Both the position numbers and the translations under genes were made by a program. From the NCBI GenBank assembly GCA_965216875.1, contig OZ244207.1, forward strand, positions 2,720,001-2,784,000: 64,000 nucleotides of DNA. Reading direction: 5' to 3'. This DNA is from Rubripirellula sp. (GTDB lineage: Bacteria; Planctomycetota; Planctomycetia; Pirellulales; Pirellulaceae). Each line of letters starts with the position of its first letter. The stretch's first letter is position 1. Positions 10,356-52,851 of the stretch are shown piece after piece. Under the pieces are notes generated by a model. That model worked only from the letters and a program-made list of their open reading frames with translations. It did not search any database and had not been told where the DNA came from.

Positions 10356-10580
10356 ATGTTGGTACTAAGTCGCAAAGAGGGTGAGCAACTGTTGATCGGC
10401 GATAACATCGTGTTGACGATCAATCGCATTTCAGGAAATCGAGTTGCTATCGGAATCGACGCCCCTCGCGATGTTCGGATTGTGCGAGGCGAACTACAGC
10501 GTCACGAAACGGTTGCCGGAGGATCGGCTCCGATGGCGCTCGAAGAAACCAACGTCGCGGTTGCCAGCAAACCTCACTAG
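10356..10580 (+). CDS. csrA: Carbon storage regulator CsrA family protein, paralog 1
   Basis: MLVLSRKEGEQLLIGDNI...IGIDAPRDVRIVRGEL. Confidence 0.92.
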   Translation: MLVLSRKEGEQLLIGDNIVLTINRISGNRVAIGIDAPRDVRIVRGELQRHETVAGGSAPMALEETNVAVASKPH

Positions 10581-23149: not shown

Positions 23150-26100
23150 ACCCGATGCAACGATGGCGGGTTTCGTCCCGCAAAGCACGAATCCAAATGA
23201 GGCGACTCAAGCCGGCTTTGTCTCGGGAACGCCTCACGCAGATGAATCCGGGCCGGCTCAAGCGGATCGTTCTGGGTCAGACCTTGAAACCGGCGTCGAC
23301 ACCGAAACGCCAACACAGCGGACACCCCCTGAGGCTCACGCTTCTGAAAACGATCCCGCCATCGGTACGCGGATCGGCGACTTTCTCATCACCTCGGTGA
23401 TCGCCAGTGGCGGAATGGGCACGGTCTACAAAGCCGACCAACAGGAGCCCGTTCGGCGCACCGTCGCGCTGAAAATGATCCGCAGCGGCATGGCCGACGA
23501 AGCGACGACAAAACGTTTCTTTGTCGAACGTCAAACACTCGCTCTGATGGATCATCCCGACATCGCTCGCGTCTACGATGCCGGAACGACCGCATGTGGC
23601 AATCCTTATTTCGCAATGGAGTATTGCGAAGGAAAACCGATCGACGAATATTGCTGCGATCGCAAGCTCGACGTCCCTATGCGTATCGAGCTTGTCGTCC
23701 GAATCGCGCGAGCTCTGCAACGGGCTCACGCCGCCGGTATCGTGCATCGCGACCTTAAACCGGGCAACATTCTCGTTTCTGATTGCGAGGGCCGACCAAA
23801 TCTGAAAGTGATTGATTTCGGGATCGCCAAATTCACCGACACCGATCAATATGATGAACTGTTCGCTTGTGGCGACAACCACGAGACACGAGTGGGCGAA
23901 CTGGTTGGCACGCCTGCCTACATGAGCCCCGAACAAGCCGCGGGCGCATCCATCGACGCTCGGACCGATGTCTTCGCCATCGGCGCCATCCTCTACAAAC
24001 TACTCACTGGCACGACGCCACTTCCGCCCCCGCCGAAGGGATGCGAAAGCCTGGCTGATGTCATCCAGCACATTCAATCGTTCGTGCCGGTGTCGCCAAG
24101 TCGACGTCTCGCAGCACAGGCTGTCGAGGCAGAGCAGCATGCAACAGGCGCTAATTGCGATCGCGTTTCGCAATTGCGTGCGTCCATCAAAGGCGACCTC
24201 GACTGGGTCACCCTCCGCGCAATCGACCCCGACAAGCTTCGGCGGTACGCAACCGCGGACGACTTTGCCGATGATCTTGAACGGTTTCTCAATCACCAGC
24301 CGGTCGTCGCCGCAGCACCAAGTCACCTCTATCGGTTCAAGAAGTTTTACCAGCGCCGACGTCCAACCGTCCTGGCAACCGCGATCGTTAGCGCCACCCT
24401 CCTTTTATCGCTGGCCTACGGAGGATTCAGCTGGTGGAAAACAAGGTCTGAATTGCTTGCCGATTTCGCGCAGACGACAAACGAGGTCACAACCCTGCTT
24501 TGCCAAGCCGACTCCGCACGCGTTCGCGCCGGCAAAGGCGGCCCCCATTCCGCACAAGCCTTCACCGAGGCACAGACTTCGCTTGCCAAAGCCGAATCAC
24601 GCTTAGCCAGCCTGGACGCGCTCGCACTGTCCGACGCACTGCAGAGCGAACTCAATTCGTTCCATGCCCAATTGAAAAACGCTGATCAAACCATCACCGC
24701 CGATCAGTCGGCGATGGACTTGGTCAAACGGCTAAACGATGCTCGCGAACGGGCGACACAGGTCGACCCTGCTCATGGCAGTGATGCGTTTGGCAAAACG
24801 GCTGGCTTACAAATGTTGGTGGATGCATTTGCTTCATTCGGCATTTGCCCTGACCAAGCCAGCCCTGAACAAGCAGCGCGAATCATCTTGGCCTGCCCAC
24901 CAGCCGTTCAACCGAAACTGATCGAATCGCTCGACTTTTTGGTAAACGAAGATCCGATTGGCGCAGGGATCTACATCCATCAGCAAGGCGGGCGTGTCAC
25001 GGTGGCTGAGATCACCAATGGGTCGGCGACAGATGGCGTCGACTTGCGCGCCGGTGATCGTATCATGGCCATCAACGGAGTCGATTTGCTCGATTCTTTC
25101 ACGACGAATCATTTGCGTGCAGAGACTTACCGCCTACTGTCGGCCGCGCCGGGCACCACCGTTACATTGTCGATTGTCCGAGACTTGGGACAACCGATTC
25201 AACGCGAATTAGTCTGCGGCGGCCAACGAGCCCACTGGGCGGCGAAGGTGCTCGAGCGCGTTGACCGTGATCCCTGGCGCAACCAGCTTCGACGAGCAAC
25301 GCTGACCGCTGACCTGGCATCACTCAGGAAATTGTCAGAATCGAAGGAGGTTGAAACGCAATCACCCTTCTCCTTGATACAACTGGCCGGCACGCTCTTT
25401 CTCTTGGAACGCAGCAACGCGTCGATTCGGTTTCTGAAGATCGCCCAGCAAAGACACCCGGCGAACTTTTGGGCCAACCATTACCTCGGCACAGCGTTAG
25501 CCGTCGCGCATGATCCACCCAAGCCGCGCGAAGCACTTCCCTACTTCACAGCGGCTGTTTCGTTGCGGCCCAAGAGCGTTGGAGCTCGGATGAATTTAGT
25601 CGAAGGCCTCGTGCGCGTCGGCGAAAAGGAAACGGCGCGGTTGCACGCGAGCGTCGCAGCCAAGCTGGCACCCGACTATGCACCACTTCAACAGATCGTC
25701 GCATCCCTTTCGAATTCGGCTGAGGGTGCGGACGCGGTCTCCGCCTCTGAACCTGCTGTTGCCTCTTTGCCAAGACGGTCAACGCCGACGGAAGCACTCG
25801 AATCCGATGACATCGAATCGCTCGAAGGCGTCGCGCGCGAGCTTGCCATTGTCGGTTTACGGGACGAGGCGTTTAAGCTCATCAAACAGGCTGCCGAACA
25901 ATTCCCAGGCGATCCCCGAATCCGACGGATGAAGGGAGCCGTGCTGATCGATCTACGCGATTATGTTGCGGCGCGGGTCGCTCTGTCCGATGCTGCGCGG
26001 CGAATGCCAAACGATGCTGCAACGCGTTTCTATCACGGTGTTGCACTGCAGTATTCCGGCGATAGCGATGCAGCCATCCACGAATACGAAGCGGCGTTAC

Positions 26101-26168
26101 AGATTCGCCCCGACTACAATGCGGCGCGCCGCTACTTGGAATCGCTCAAGCCGAAGCGTCAGGATTAG
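23136..26168 (+). CDS. Transmembrane Ser/Thr protein kinase with PDZ and TPR regions after the TM helix (start GTG 23136 or ATG 23163)
   Basis: [34 protein letters not shown] segment VLATAIV...GGFSWW; PDZ-like GAGIYI...[13 protein letters not shown]-terminal TPRs. Confidence 0.92.
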
Positions 26169-26185
26169 GTCGAACCATCAAAACG

Positions 26186-26226
26186 AAAAAAGGCCGGGCG
26201 TGCTTCGACTCGTCGCACGTCCGGCC
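26186..26226 (-). terminator. Rho-independent terminator oriented for a minus-strand transcript
   Basis: On the minus strand GGCCGGACGUGC...GCACGCCCGGCC followed by U6. Confidence 0.8.
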
Positions 26227-26519
26227 TCAAAGTCAATCCTGACTTTTCAGTTAGCTGGCTTGTTCATCGTGGTTGAATCCATCCAACCGTCCGAGTCATC
26301 CTGACCTCGGGATTCTGGCAAAGGTTTCTTTTCCGCCGTGAGGCATCTTGCCTGTGGGTGCGCCAATCCGTGCGCCGGCGGTGTTTGAAACCCATCACCA
26401 AATTCGACGATGGTTCAGCCGGCTAATCCCACATCCCTGTGAACTGATCATTCACTCCCCTTGTGAACGGGCTGCCGTAACGCATGTGACTTACAAAATT
26501 GCGTGACGGCCAAATGACA
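26186..26519 (-). ncRNA. Candidate CsrB/RsmZ-like CsrA-sequestering sRNA
   Basis: Non-coding interval with 11 GGA trinucleotides on the minus strand and six hairpins with GGA-containing loops (AGGAU, AUGGAU, AGGGAU, ACGGA...); promoter upstream and terminator downstream. Confidence 0.65.
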
Positions 26520-26525
26520 CTCTTC

Positions 26526-26554
26526 AACCTATCCAATCGAGCGTCGTAAGACAA
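26526..26554 (-). promoter_or_regulatory. Putative sigma70 promoter of the candidate sRNA
   Basis: Minus strand TTGTCT (26554-26549), 17 nt, TAGGTT (26531-26526). Confidence 0.5.
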
Positions 26555-26741
26555 CGCAGAATCCTGCGAGCGAAGCCGCCGAGGGTAACGGTTAGTTTTT
26601 GCAGACATGTCTTTTTGAATCTGATTGAGCTCGATCTGCCAACGTCAACGACCAACCGACAAGACAGAGCAACAGCAACGATCTGAAAAAACGTTTCCGA
26701 ACCCCCGACGTTTCGCAAGCGGAGGAAACTCGCGTCGTATG

Positions 26742-27491
26742 TTAGGCAACCAAGCGATACTCTTGGTCGACTCGCTGTGTCACACCTTCGACGAACTCTT
26801 CGAAGATGCGAATGTCGAGCGCCGAAGCGGCACCACATTCAGGATGGAATTGAGTGCCCAATGCGAACCAATCCATCATTTCACTCTCGATCGCTTCGAT
26901 CACACCATCGGGGCATCGCGCGGTGACGCGGAAGCCTGGTGCAACTTCATCGATCGCCATGTGGTGACGACTGCTGACCCGAATCTCGCCATCACCGTAA
27001 ACACGTCCAACAAGCGAATCGCTTTCGACTTCGAGCGTGTGACGATGGTTGGGGTCTTGAGGATCGTGGTGAGGCACAGCCGATGGCATGTCCTCTTTAA
27101 GATGTAGGAACAGGTTTCCGCCCTGCTGGACGTTCAAGAGCTGCATTCCGGTTCCGATACCGAGCAGTGGCATGCGTCGCTCAGCAATTTCTGAGATCAA
27201 CATGCGGTCGCTCGCTTCGCGAACAGGATCAAGTGGTCGCACGCTGGGGTGCAACATAAAACCGTCGTTTCGCGGATCAAGGTCCGCCCCTCCGATCATG
27301 ATGAATCCATGCAGTTGGTCGAGCGTGGCTCGAATCGAGTCAGCGTCTTCCAACGGCGGAATCACCACTGGGATGCCTCCAGCTGCGATCACAGACTGAA
27401 AATAACCGGCGGCGATGTAGCTGTATGCGGGTGTATTGCGAGCAGCTGCACGGTAGTCGGCGTTCATCCCGATCAGTGGTTTACACGTCAT
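26742..27491 (-). CDS. PuuD-like class I glutamine amidotransferase (peptidase C26) lacking the nucleophile Cys
   Basis: KPLIG, AGGIPV, GGADLDP, QFHPE; LGIGTGMQ instead of LGICRGMQ. Confidence 0.85.
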   Translation of the reverse strand: MTCKPLIGMNADYRAAARNTPAYSYIAAGYFQSVIAAGGIPVVIPPLEDADSIRATLDQLHGFIMIGGADLDPRNDGFMLHPSVRPLDPVREASDRMLISEIAERRMPLLGIGTGMQLLNVQQGGNLFLHLKEDMPSAVPHHDPQDPNHRHTLEVESDSLVGRVYGDGEIRVSSRHHMAIDEVAPGFRVTARCPDGVIEAIESEMMDWFALGTQFHPECGAASALDIRIFEEFVEGVTQRVDQEYRLVA

Positions 27492-28135
27492 CCGAAAGTT
27501 CCTCTTCGGTTTCGCGAATAAAAATGTGACGCAGAGTCTTGCCGCGTCGCCCAACTGGTTGACGTCAATCAGCAACCAATCGTTTCTACGGAACCGAGTC
27601 GCTCAGCAGCACAGCCTTGGCCGTTTGCATCCGACTCGAAACAGACAAGTGAAAAGGAAGGTTTGATAAGGAGGGCCACTTTGGCGATGAGCCGGATTGT
27701 TTGCCGGTTGAGTACTTCGGCGTTCCGTTCTCGTTGTTCCAAAGTGTTTATCGACACTCTTCGCAACCTTGCAATCCCTTGCGTTGTTTTCGTCCTCGAA
27801 GCGGTCGTCTTGATGATTGGGGGTCGAAGTTGGGTTGGAAGGCACAACGGTATGCCCTCCGCGTTCGAGAGAAAATTAGCGGGAAAACTCCCAAAGACCA
27901 AAGAGCTTCCACATATTGGGGCACCTCGAGGTCGCTAGCACTACCGGGAGTGCTAGCATTCTGCGAGAATGCTAGCAACTCGCGGCCAGCCGCAGGTTTT
28001 GCGGTCATTTCTGGGGACACGCGAAGGGACAGGCCGGTCTAACGAGAGGCTCTTTGCCAGATCGGTTTGTCACAGCCTAAAATGCGCTTTTCCCAGCGTT
28101 CTTGCCCCACTCTCCCTTTGCCCAACGACACCAGC

Positions 28136-49360: not shown

Positions 49361-49822
49361 ATGCGGATCAACACACAACGATTTGGCACGTTGCGACTGA
49401 ACGCAAATCAGCTCTTCCTGTTTCCACAGGGACTGATTGGAATGGAAACCCTTCGGCAGTGGGCTCTGTTGCCTGACCAGGACAACGCGTCGGTCGCGTG
49501 GTTGCAGAGCGCTTCACGTGGTGATCGAGCCATTCCGCTCATCAGCCCTCGTGCGTTTTACAACGATTATCGGGTCCACGTCAGTCGTCGCGACCTGGAG
49601 ACGTTGCACATGCGTCCTGGTGCGGAAATCTATGTGATGACCACGGTGTCGGGGCACGTTGGCAAACTGACGACCAATCTGCGATCGCCCGTTCTCTTGA
49701 ACTTGAATCGACGTCTCGGTTGCCAGGTGATCACGAGTGATGATCAACCTTTGCAGCATCCTGTGCCATTGGCTTCACCACAGCAGCCTTCGGTCTCTGA
49801 GATCATCAAAAAGGTCGCCTAA
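49361..49822 (+). CDS. fliW: Flagellar assembly factor FliW
   Basis: [27 protein letters not shown]...GCQVI; lies between flgL and csrA. Confidence 0.92.
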
Positions 49823-50055
49823 GGGTTTCGAGACCCTCAAACCGCGTGTCGGCTGAAACACTTGGCGTCCGAACCGGCACGACCGGTATGGACCGACCTT
49901 CCGAGCTTCGGTGTCAATTCGTCGCAATTCGCGGCCGATCATCTCTCTAGCGAGCAAGACAGGATTCTTCTCGCCATTGCACTGCGGCCGAACTCTACCC
50001 GCCGGTCGTGCATTGAAATTGTAAGCACCCCCAATCAAACACCTCCGAGGACGAC

Positions 50056-50283
50056 ATGCTGGTCCTTTCACGACACCGAGACGAAAGCATCATGATCGGC
50101 GACGATGTTGTTGTGACGATCGTGGACATCCGTGGTGACAAGGTCCGGCTTGGAATCGAGGCTCCACAGTCGATTCCGGTCCACCGCCAGGAAGTCTACG
50201 ACGCGATCCAACGCGAGAATCGCCGTGCGACCCAAACGGGCGCAGGAGCAACCAAGGACGTTCAACCTCCGCAAGAGGACTAA
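50056..50283 (+). CDS. csrA: CsrA paralog 2, FliW-associated type
   Basis: MLVLSR...VRLGIEAP...[14 protein letters not shown]. Confidence 0.96.
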
Positions 50284-50826: not shown

Positions 50827-52851
50827 ATGACTAGAATCAACACCAATGTCTCCTCGCTGGTTGCACAGAACCGACTGAAGACCAGCAACAACGACTTGCA
50901 ATCCGCTCTGACTCGACTGAGCACCGGTTTGAGAATCAATAGCGGTGCCGATGACCCCGCTGGTTTGATCGCCAGCGAGGCTCTTCGAAGTGAAATCACG
51001 GGTCTCAACAAAGCGATCTCGAACACGCAACGTGCCAGCCAGATCATCGCGACGGCCGACAGTGCCCTCGGGCAGGTCAGCACGCTGCTTAATGACGTCC
51101 GCGGCTTGGTTGTCGAAGCGGCCAACGGCGGTGCGTTGAGCGAAGAGGAAATTGCTGCGAACCAACTTCAAATTGACAGTTCGCTCGAAGCCATTAACCG
51201 AATCTCGCAGACCACGACCTTCCAAGGGCGTAAATTGCTTGACGGTTCACAAGACTTTGTCTCGACCGTCGGCAGCGTTTCGTCGGTCCGTGACGCAAGT
51301 ATCGAACAAGCCAAACTCGGCTCGGGCAACTTGAACGTCGAAGTCGTTGTCAGTGCAGCTGCTGAGCAAGCGACCGCAACGGCAAGTGCGTCGGCCTTTA
51401 CAACCGCCGCTCAAGCAAACGCAGCCACACCAGACGGCCGCGTTGGCACCGCCGCCATCGGTGGTGAAACGATCACAATCACCGGTGACGACGGATTCGC
51501 CAACGTGACTTTGGCTGACAATGCCGGCGATGGCACGGGTGTCGTCTCTTACAACTCGGGCACCGGCGAATTGACCATCTCGGCCGACTTCACCGGGACC
51601 TCAGCTGACGCTCAAGTCATTCAAGACGCAATCGACGACTTGGATGGTTTTGTTGCAACGGGTGCCTCCGGTGCTGGTACCGGTGGTGGTACTGCGGGTA
51701 CGACCGCAACCGCTGCAGCCGGCGCGGTTGTTGACATCACCGCCGTCAACAGCGGCTCGGATTACAACAATGTGACCGTTGAATTTGTCTCGGGTGCCTC
51801 CAACGCAGCCGACTACGACAGCGAACAAAAAGTCTTGACCGTTACGGTCAACTCCTCGGCACCTCAAACCGCGACGGCCATCGCAAGTGCGATTGGAAGC
51901 CACACCGTTGACGGAGCATCGGCCACAGCACTTTTCAGTGCCACTGGATTGGCCAACGCTTCGGTTGACATCGGCGATGGCGTCGACTCGATCACCACCG
52001 GCAGCACCGGCGGTGAAGTGTTGGCAGCCGACTTGGTCTTCCAACTCAACGGCTCGCAAGGTGCTGAAACATTCAACTTTGGTTCGGGAACGAGCAAAGA
52101 CCAGATCGCTGAAGCCATCAACTTGGTCTCCGACAGTACCGGTGTCGGTGCCGCTGTGGCATCGGGTGCCTTGACACTGACATCGACCGACTACGGTAGT
52201 GATGCTTTGGTCAATGTCGATGTGATCAATGAAGGCTCGGGCGGAACCTTCGCCTCCAACCTTGACACCACTCGCGACACAGGTACCGACATTCAAGCCA
52301 AGGTCAACGGTGTCGAAGCAACCGGAAACGCGAACACATTGTCGATCAACACCAGTTCGCTTGACTTGTCATTGACCGTTGATGACGGCAGCAGCACCAA
52401 CTTCTCGTTCTCGATCTCGGGCGGTGGAGCCACCTTCCAATTGGGACCTGAAGTCAGCAGCACTCAGCAAGCCGCACTCGGCATCGGCAGCGTCAGCACC
52501 GGTCAACTCGGTGGTGCCACTGGACGTTTGTACGAACTCGGCAGCGGTCAGGCTCGCAGCTTGAACAATGATGTGACCGGAGCCGCAAAGATCATTGACG
52601 AAGTGATCGGTAAAGTCACCGGCCTTCGCGGTCGATTGGGTGCGTTCCAGTCCACGACGCTGGAAAGCAACTTGGTCTCGCTCAATGACACCAAAGCCAA
52701 CCTGCAAGAAGCAGAAAGCTCGATCCGCGACGCTGACTTTGCTCAAGAGTCGGCGAAGTTGACCCGAGCTCAGATCCTGGTTCAGTCGGGCACCAACGTG
52801 TTGTCGCTGGCCAACCAGAATCCACAAAACGTTTTGGCTCTGCTGCGATAA
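50827..52851 (+). CDS. fliC: Flagellin
   Basis: MTRINTNVSSL, RLSTGLRINSGADDPAGL, IRDADFAQE, QNVLALLR. Confidence 0.97.
   Translation: MTRINTNVSSLVAQNRLKTSNNDLQSALTRLSTGLRINSGADDPAGLIASEALRSEITGLNKAISNTQRASQIIATADSALGQVSTLLNDVRGLVVEAANGGALSEEEIAANQLQIDSSLEAINRISQTTTFQGRKLLDGSQDFVSTVGSVSSVRDASIEQAKLGSGNLNVEVVVSAAAEQATATASASAFTTAAQANAATPDGRVGTAAIGGETITITGDDGFANVTLADNAGDGTGVVSYNSGTGELTISADFTGTSADAQVIQDAIDDLDGFVATGASGAGTGGGTAGTTATAAAGAVVDITAVNSGSDYNNVTVEFVSGASNAADYDSEQKVLTVTVNSSAPQTATAIASAIGSHTVDGASATALFSATGLANASVDIGDGVDSITTGSTGGEVLAADLVFQLNGSQGAETFNFGSGTSKDQIAEAINLVSDSTGVGAAVASGALTLTSTDYGSDALVNVDVINEGSGGTFASNLDTTRDTGTDIQAKVNGVEATGNANTLSINTSSLDLSLTVDDGSSTNFSFSISGGGATFQLGPEVSSTQQAALGIGSVSTGQLGGATGRLYELGSGQARSLNNDVTGAAKIIDEVIGKVTGLRGRLGAFQSTTLESNLVSLNDTKANLQEAESSIRDADFAQESAKLTRAQILVQSGTNVLSLANQNPQNVLALLR

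Follow-up and report, generated by a model that had tools for sequence, protein, structure and literature searches.

Among the described RNA antagonists of CsrA, RsmX, RsmY and RsmZ of Pseudomonas are about 110–120 nt long and depend on GacA. Transcription of these RNAs and of CsrB and CsrC is driven by BarA/UvrY (GacS/GacA) through an upstream activating sequence. Such RNA decoys have been characterized mainly in Gammaproteobacteria, the protein FliW being regarded elsewhere as the ancestral antagonist, and Planctomycetota are reported to be one of the most CsrA-rich phyla, a single genome having as many as 15 paralogs (PMC13443453). The consensus ligand of CsrA, as reported from systematic evolution of ligands by exponential enrichment (SELEX), is RUACARGGAUGU with the GGA in a hairpin loop (PMC4347634). 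A further RNA of P. aeruginosa, RsmW, is described as binding RsmA, carrying 7 GGA motifs and lying less than 30 nt after an open reading frame (ORF) with no intervening terminator, apparently processed from a 3′ untranslated region (3′UTR) (PMC4950607). For the Planctomycetes–Verrucomicrobia–Chlamydiae (PVC) group, a table in PMC9029176 gives eight annotated small RNA (sRNA) families. Here we consider a 64,000-nt stretch of a Rubripirellula genome (the window), in which an intergenic interval holds a conserved, structured non-coding RNA on the minus strand. It is probably a CsrA decoy, since its hairpin loops display the CsrA binding motif.

The elements of the RNA follow one another in the order H0, H1, a long-range helix P1 that encloses H2–H5, and H6, which abuts the terminator. 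The parts are listed below in 5′ to 3′ order, with the probability that a loop GGA is unpaired, P(unpaired), taken from the source sequence, and the pairing figures (cells are the individual sequence-by-pair entries) taken from the ortholog alignment described below.

26186..26519, minus strand: proposed non-coding RNA, from the fold and orthologs; 3′ end at 26186 firm, 5′ end uncertain
26451..26467, minus strand: hairpin H0, UUCAC-AAGGGGA-GUGAA, from the minus-strand read-out and the minimum free energy (MFE) fold; GGA P(unpaired) 0.65
26428..26443, minus strand: hairpin H1, UUCAC-AGGGAU-GUGGG; 89% of cells paired, 3/4 pairs compensatory; P(unpaired) 0.94
26417..26426, minus strand: long-range helix P1, 5′ strand (UUAGCCGGCU); partner in the MFE fold 26260-26251
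26360..26375, minus strand: hairpin H2, GCGC-ACGGAUUG-GCGC; covarying stem; P(unpaired) 0.95
26341..26353, minus strand: hairpin H3, AGGC-AAGAU-GCCU; 95.5% of cells paired
26291..26310, minus strand: hairpin H4, CCGAGGUC-AGGAU-GACUCGG; 7/7 pairs compensatory; P(unpaired) 1.0
26271..26288, minus strand: hairpin H5, GGUUGG-AUGGAU-UCAACC, from the read-out and the MFE fold; loop GGA P(unpaired) 1.0
26251..26260, minus strand: long-range helix P1, 3′ strand (AGCCAGCUAA), closing the H2–H5 domain; from fold and covariation
26229..26246, minus strand: hairpin H6, AAAGUC-AGGAUU-GACUUU; 91.5% of cells paired
26186..26228, minus strand: intrinsic terminator with a 14-bp G+C-rich stem, apical loop GACGAGUCGAA and U6; 98.3% of cells paired, 6 compensatory pairs; within the covariance model R1 (see below)

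All seven hairpins and the G+C-rich terminator hairpin with its U6 that the first-pass annotation had placed on this strand were read out from the sequence where it had put them, and the MFE fold of 26180-26530 contains every one of them. The energy of this fold is -138.2 kcal/mol compared to -112.3 +/- 4.9 for dinucleotide shuffles (z = -5.3), and none of 100 shuffles was as good. A simple terminator scan did not report the hairpin at 26228-26186, because the loops it considers are limited to 3–8 bases and the terminator loop is longer; the hairpin is backed by both the MFE fold and covariation. The H4 stem contains one bulged A and one G-U pair. As to coding potential, the annotation had seen no credible ORF, and open frames in 26186-26560 indeed reach at most 55 codons on either strand. 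The longest sense ORFs are no longer than the antisense ones (medians of 50 and 46 aa), and of 521 gap runs only 50 have a length divisible by three. The RNA is thus, like the members of the decoy class, non-coding with an intrinsic terminator of its own at the 3′ end.

Further evidence comes from relatives. We aligned the last 292 nt of 30 sequences with MAFFT, which is blind to structure (alignment A4), and RNAalifold found 29 pairs on it, 14 of them with compensatory changes. A fuller structure written by hand for the same alignment, comprising H1, P1, H2–H6 and the terminator, has 57 pairs; 85.3% of its 1682 cells can pair, compared to 30–38% when the partners are slid by 1–3 columns. Changes on both sides of a pair occur in 39 of the 57 pairs (165 cells), including all ten pairs of P1, and none of 500 shuffles reached any of the five measures used. 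The shuffle control overstates the case because the sequences are related, which does not affect the slid control. The pairing figures themselves are conservative, as structure played no part in making the alignment and some distant rows are misregistered. In particular, the assessment of H2 and of the distant orthologs used MAFFT columns that are out of structural register for some rows, and the H5 region is poorly aligned, with 55–75% of cells paired. The element is a conserved, structured non-coding RNA.

Conservation extends to the loops and to their placement. The position of H0 is occupied in relatives by a conserved CGCUGAGGAG, the family consensus of H1 is UCACA(N)GGAUGUGA, the A.GGA of the H2 loop is invariant across the 30 sequences, and the GGA of H4 is invariant in a 13-sequence alignment. 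H6 and the terminator form the most conserved block, with 79–94% identity across genera. Within the Rubripirellula-like group the hairpins stand at fixed distances from the 3′ end (H1 at about -258, H2 at -198, H4 at -125 and H6 at -60). That GGA loops should persist in relatives had been named beforehand as a test on which the proposal could fall; they do persist, while the stems covary.

The GGA motifs are selectively exposed. The claimed count of 11 GGA in about 280 nt is exact for 26186-26467 (282 nt), which has a single TCC; the average for the genome is 3.8 in a stretch of that length, about a third as many. For a wider view we took 62 non-redundant orthologous intervals (21.7 kb), which hold 612 GGA and 236 TCC, with sense exceeding antisense in 61 of 62. 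The sense strand has 282 loop GGAs, the antisense strand 50 and shuffles 86.9; of the sense-strand ones, that of H6 in each sequence is expected from the way R1 was built. As in the decoy class, there are several such loops per RNA, the median per ortholog being 5 (range 1–10 in the 62 sequences). Partition-function calculations give a mean P(unpaired) of 0.553 for GGA, compared to 0.107 for GGC, 0.161 for GGU and 0.207 for GGG; the mean over all positions is 0.367, and that of antisense GGA is 0.164. The source genome has seven exposed GGAs (P > 0.6), at 26458, 26436, 26429, 26369, 26301, 26280 and 26239, and five canonical A(N)GGA loops. Successive loop GGAs are 10–29 nt apart in 76 of 230 cases, a distance within the span that a CsrA dimer can bridge. 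The consensus derived from 301 loop GGAs runs C (46%), A (59%), A or C, GGA, U (56%), G (48%), that is CA(N)GGAUG, which fits the reported SELEX consensus of CsrA (PMC4347634).

The RNA belongs to a limited set of genera. A BLASTN search with the interval through 201 family genomes, the source genome (G000) included, recovered the last hairpin and terminator in 12 other genomes of 7 genera. R1, a covariance model of this 80-nt module, matched 22 of 151 sampled Pirellulaceae genomes; 16 of these matches, spread over 11 genera, follow the same gene for a class-I glutamine amidotransferase (GATase) that precedes the RNA here, and the other six are ordinary terminators elsewhere, away from a GATase gene. 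The source genome has one copy. Beyond the family, a search of 151 genomes of the class with R1 yielded no genuine instance, the sole non-self match (G289) being an ordinary terminator after an ORF. When loci were instead sampled through the GATase protein, 61 of 80 from named Pirellulaceae carried an R1 match 190–500 nt past the stop codon. Carriers include Rubripirellula and Rubripirellula obstinata, Novipirellula rosea, N. herctigrandis, Roseimaritima sediminicola, Neorhodopirellula pilleata, Rhodopirellula europaea, R. sallentina, Aporhodopirellula (A. rubra among them) and Candidatus Laterigemmans. R1 is insensitive, since two loci (L130 and L133) with 6–7 loop GGAs and a different terminator escape it. 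Nothing comparable was seen at the GATase locus in five Stieleria loci, Roseiconus nitratireducens, Rhodopirellula sp. SM50 and Rhodopirellula baltica BR-MGV, and two further loci (L106, L122) had too little downstream DNA to judge.

The largest number of loop GGAs is found in Candidatus Laterigemmans baculatus (L131), whose 421-nt interval has 22 GGA, 10 of them in loops, and includes four tandem copies of GCUGCAC-ACGGA(C/A/G)-GUGCGGC about 33 nt apart, which look like a local expansion of binding sites. Two other observations concern DNA beyond the terminator of the RNA in relatives. In one locus a group II intron match (RF00029, 40.6 bits, with the gathering score at 40; L017:1812-1889, minus strand) lies about 250 nt beyond it, and in a Rhodopirellula metagenome-assembled genome (L123) a tandem heptamer array of GCTTCTA and GCTGCTA units begins about 40 nt past it.

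The interval is flanked by the GATase gene on the same strand and by a convergent gene for a 1031-aa Ser/Thr kinase with PDZ and TPR domains, which ends at 26168. The likely start of the GATase gene is the ATG at 27491, and its best NCBIfam match, below cut-off, is gamma-glutamyl-GABA hydrolase. The features that bear on where the transcript begins are as follows.

26742..27491, minus strand: Peptidase_C26 / class-I glutamine amidotransferase (PuuD-like) gene, the upstream neighbour of the RNA; Pfam PF07722, E = 1.2e-63
26686..26729, minus strand: terminator-like hairpin with U6, 12 nt after the GATase stop; -14 kcal/mol
26526..26554, minus strand: putative promoter TTGTCT-N17-TAGGTT; sequence present, not called by a consensus scan

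The promoter proposed in the first-pass annotation therefore stands as a sequence, though its hexamers were not called by the consensus scan. Inspection of 32 upstream regions showed that Rubripirellula-like relatives repeatedly have a TTGATAG/TTGGATAG-like box 5′ of H0, and no consistent shared -35 element was found. The 5′ end would be near 26519 if the promoter is real, and must be at 26469 or higher to include H0. A similar qualification applies to the proposed length of about 335 nt: the 3′ end at 26186 is firm, but the length is unconfirmed and many orthologous intervals are only 280–310 nt long. The conserved core, counted from the 3′ end, is about 260–290 nt, and because so many intervals are this short it begins only 20–40 nt past the stop codon in them; the whole RNA would be up to about 335 nt long in the source genome. 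In the source genome an unconserved spacer of about 170 nt separates the terminator-like site from the core. By a strict rule, under which two loci with a U-run 6–8 nt past the hairpin (L015, L019) were not counted, a terminator between gene and RNA is found in 3 of 62 orthologous intervals and is lacking in 59. The layout in the source genome thus suggests a promoter of its own, and the short intervals of most relatives suggest an RNA derived from the 3′UTR; with so few intervening terminators, it is possibly co-transcribed and processed there.

The other end of the same gene has conserved structure as well, which is a new observation of this work.

27492..27509, minus strand: Shine-Dalgarno hairpin CCGAAG-AGGAA-CUUUCGG, directly before the AUG; similar in appearance to a CsrA operator
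27528..27548, minus strand: leader hairpin L1, GACGC-GGCAAGACUCU-GCGUC; 7/7 pairs compensatory in 60 distinct leaders

The loop of the first hairpin holds the Shine-Dalgarno sequence GAGGA, of which AGG is invariant in 62 leaders; 85% of its cells are paired, though it varies too little for much covariation and only 2 of 6 pairs change on both sides. In relatives L1 takes the form GAUGC-GGGACGAGUCU-GCAUC. Identity is 0.78 at positions -10 to -1 compared to 0.56 at third codon positions, and the GATase leader is conserved well beyond neutral expectation. The textbook leader repressed by CsrA has its Shine-Dalgarno sequence in the loop of one hairpin and another hairpin upstream of it, and by analogy this leader may be a CsrA operator. 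Against this, the L1 loop of the source genome (GGCAAGACUCU) has no GGA, and the GGGACGA of relatives keeps one G of its GGA in the stem. The leader is also kept in a Stieleria locus (L102) that lacks the RNA, so that leader and tail are separable. The heptamer GACGAGU is common to the terminator loop GACGAGUCGAA (26214-26204) and to the L1 loop GGGACGAGUCU of relatives (e.g. L057), the source loop GGCAAGACUCU being different; this could be chance or reflect a common ligand.

If the RNA is to act on CsrA, the protein should be at hand, and it is. The source genome has seven genes with a CsrA domain (PF02599 over cut-off), all starting MLVL(S/T)R, and one paralog matches solved CsrA/RsmE chains with E of about 1e-12, so that, as in the decoy class, CsrA and the RNA are found in the same genome. 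It has a single FliW gene, recognized by a domain match. The relevant genes in the window are these.

49421..49762, plus strand: FliW gene, the only one in the genome; domain match
50056..50211, plus strand: CsrA paralog adjoining FliW, followed by a flagellin gene with a domain match from window position 50836
10356..10502, plus strand: second CsrA paralog in the window, without an adjacent FliW gene

FliW, CsrA and flagellin genes form a run on the plus strand (window 49421-50211 and from about 50827 onward). Across the family, CsrA matches number 2–17 per genome in 151 of 151 genomes and FliW 0–1 per genome in 31 genomes. One CsrA gene outside the window (L006:1501-2283, G000:C1 about 7909558-7910340, plus strand) encodes a 261-aa protein with an N-terminal CsrA and a C-terminal receiver domain (PF02599 and PF00072), in which CsrA activity could be set by phosphorylation.

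We considered how often such a locus might arise by chance. Within 203 nt the RNA carries five A(N)GGA loops whose stems have 4 bp or more, and the 8.26-Mb genome was scanned for such loops, with the 12 best non-overlapping scan windows listed per strand. Among those listed, 15 loci including that of the RNA reach the same density of A(N)GGA loops per 250 nt. The 11 other dense loci inspected, three scan windows of very short span standing outside the inspection, include none that is both gene-free and non-repeated: eight coincide at least in part with open frames of 235–1373 codons, a ninth extends across two such frames (510 and 467 codons), another (2714869) overlaps frames of 126 and 118 codons, and the last (1261188) is a duplicated repeat. 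A looser scan for any GGA loop was discarded in favour of this one, as its top scan windows were dominated by palindromes resembling repetitive extragenic palindromic (REP) sequences. These are intergenic clusters in many copies with a CGGAG-type apex, for instance GGGACGCGGAGCGTCC, GTTCCCACGGAGGACCGTGGGAAC and GTCATGCGGAGCATGAC, and lie outside the window, at G000:C1 4259693-4259992 and 3440092-3440391 on the minus strand and 658662-658961, 1640143-1640442, 6442766-6443065 and 7115897-7116196 on the plus strand. Two further stretches outside the window (G000:C1 692662-692780 and 1240687-1240876, both plus strand) have several A(N)GGA hairpin loops running into the starts of long ORFs, the former with a GGAGGA Shine-Dalgarno inside a hairpin ahead of a 1299-codon frame, and are possible CsrA-regulated leaders.

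From the sequence we infer the following course of events. The RNA would be transcribed on the minus strand directly 3′ of the PuuD-like amidotransferase gene and end at the strong intrinsic terminator; the loops of five to seven of its hairpins display (C)A(N)GGA(U)(G); these loops would be bound by dimers of at least one CsrA paralog; and the bound CsrA would be titrated away from mRNA leaders, as with CsrB/CsrC and RsmX/Y/Z. The earlier proposal of a CsrA-titrating RNA, as a predicted function, thus gains support from the conserved loops, the fit of their consensus to that of CsrA and the many CsrA genes. Several observations weigh against it. Flagellin leaders are the classical CsrA targets in FliW systems, but all four of those in the source genome lack GGA within 110 nt upstream of the start, their Shine-Dalgarno regions being AGGGG or AAGGGC, and the use of the CsrA motif in this organism could therefore not be calibrated. 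The raw number of GGAs is not significant alone, as dinucleotide shuffles have 9.3 +/- 2.1 and 266 of 1000 reach 11. The H3 loop is AAGAU in most sequences and AGGAU in only some, and some genera have an H6 loop without GGA (ACGGCU, AUGGCU or AGGGUU). The exposed sites, about seven, compare to 18 reported for CsrB (PMC4347634). Of 126 sampled genera, only 11 have the RNA according to R1, in a family whose genomes all have several CsrA genes; although R1 is insensitive, the RNA is therefore not the family's general CsrA antagonist. As the genera that have it are close kin, matching its presence to that of one CsrA paralog is confounded by relatedness. Lastly, the fixed multi-helix architecture and the nearly invariant terminator loop exceed what a simple decoy needs, and hint at a further partner or function.

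This last point leads to one of the alternatives, a structured RNA with another role, either as a scaffold or ligand of a different RNA-binding protein or as a base-pairing sRNA, the GGA loops being read by a factor other than CsrA. P1, the fixed order of hairpins and the terminator loop would fit a defined three-dimensional architecture, GGA can be lost from H3 and H6, and the GGA-free flagellin leaders agree with it too. However, the loop consensus is close to that of CsrA, it is GGA rather than GGC, GGU or GGG that is kept unpaired, and CsrA paralogs are abundant while we found no alternative protein family to propose, so we regard this reading as unlikely. We give similarly little credence to a purely cis-acting 3′UTR, that is, a tail, possibly bound by CsrA, that controls the stability, 3′ processing or translation of the GATase mRNA alone with no global titration. 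Such a role would account for the constant position of the RNA, immediately 3′ of this one gene and on its strand wherever it is found, for the 59 of 62 intervals with no terminator between the two, many of them only 280–310 nt long, and for the operator-like hairpins in the leader of the same mRNA. Yet five to ten displayed sites are more than the operator of a single mRNA needs, the leader persists in Stieleria L102 where the tail is missing, and in the source genome the hairpin and U6 12 nt past the stop, with the unconserved spacer behind them, set the RNA apart from the gene. That there is no functional RNA at all, only a G+C-rich spacer with chance hairpins and the terminator of a neighbouring gene, is barely tenable: although the raw GGA count lies within the shuffle range and six of the 22 R1 matches in the family, like the only one outside it, are ordinary terminators, chance does not explain compensatory changes in 39 of 57 pairs on a structure-blind alignment, hairpin positions fixed across genera, or the sense-strand excess in 61 of 62 intervals.

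Keeping to the decoy acting in trans, a broader and more tentative picture can be drawn for this subclade of Pirellulaceae, one that we would put forward as a possibility rather than as an expectation. A Csr-like circuit may be contained in one unit, in which the GATase mRNA has a CsrA-operator-like leader and, 3′ of it, a multi-site CsrA decoy (derived from the 3′UTR or made from an internal promoter), so that the amount of free CsrA, from several FliW-less paralogs of which one is fused to a receiver, would be tied to how strongly a nitrogen/polyamine-type enzyme is expressed; its RNA-based CsrA antagonist would have arisen independently of the gammaproteobacterial CsrB/Rsm families. If the RNA is a decoy, it would be an independently evolved, RNA-based CsrA decoy family with strong comparative support and a well-supported addition to the very few sRNA families of the PVC group. 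Because the RNA occurs in cultured species (among them Novipirellula rosea, N. herctigrandis, Rubripirellula obstinata, Roseimaritima sediminicola, Rhodopirellula europaea and Aporhodopirellula rubra), the decoy question is directly testable.

The earlier remark that no such RNA has been described in Planctomycetota agrees with our literature searches, which covered CsrA and non-coding RNAs of planctomycetes as well as FliW and CsrA in general, left supplements aside, and found no planctomycete CsrA decoy. The comparison with Rfam by Infernal that had been proposed likewise matched no family: there were no matches at gathering score in the 64-kb window, only a noise match (Ref68, E = 6) at E up to 10 in 26100-26800, and none of relevance in 12 orthologous loci. 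It therefore belongs to none of the CsrB, CsrC and RsmX/Y/Z families. With CsrB and CsrC of E. coli the RNA nonetheless shares a length of a few hundred nucleotides, many short hairpins with GGA loops, an intrinsic terminator, and a loop consensus that fits the ligand consensus of CsrA. It differs from them in having a conserved long-range helix, a fixed order of hairpins and a position 3′ of one gene, in its exposed sites (about seven, compared to the 18 of CsrB and the 9 reported for CsrC; PMC4347634), and in coming from Planctomycetota, where CsrB and CsrC are gammaproteobacterial. RsmX, RsmY and RsmZ are similar in their GGA loops and terminator and would be so in serving several CsrA/Rsm paralogs, though Rfam detects no homology to them. 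A parallel in layout is RsmW, whose position matches the arrangement of gene and RNA in most relatives; but RsmW is described as about 120 nt long and following a small hypothetical ORF (PMC4950607), whereas the present RNA, of about 290 nt, is conserved across many genera behind a conserved enzyme gene and, in the source genome, is set off from it by a terminator-like site. FliW would share CsrA as the presumed common target, and here adjoins one CsrA paralog and the flagellin gene, but it is a protein rather than an RNA and is present once against seven CsrA paralogs. Taken together, the RNA looks as if it works like the CsrB and Rsm RNAs, though it stands outside their families.

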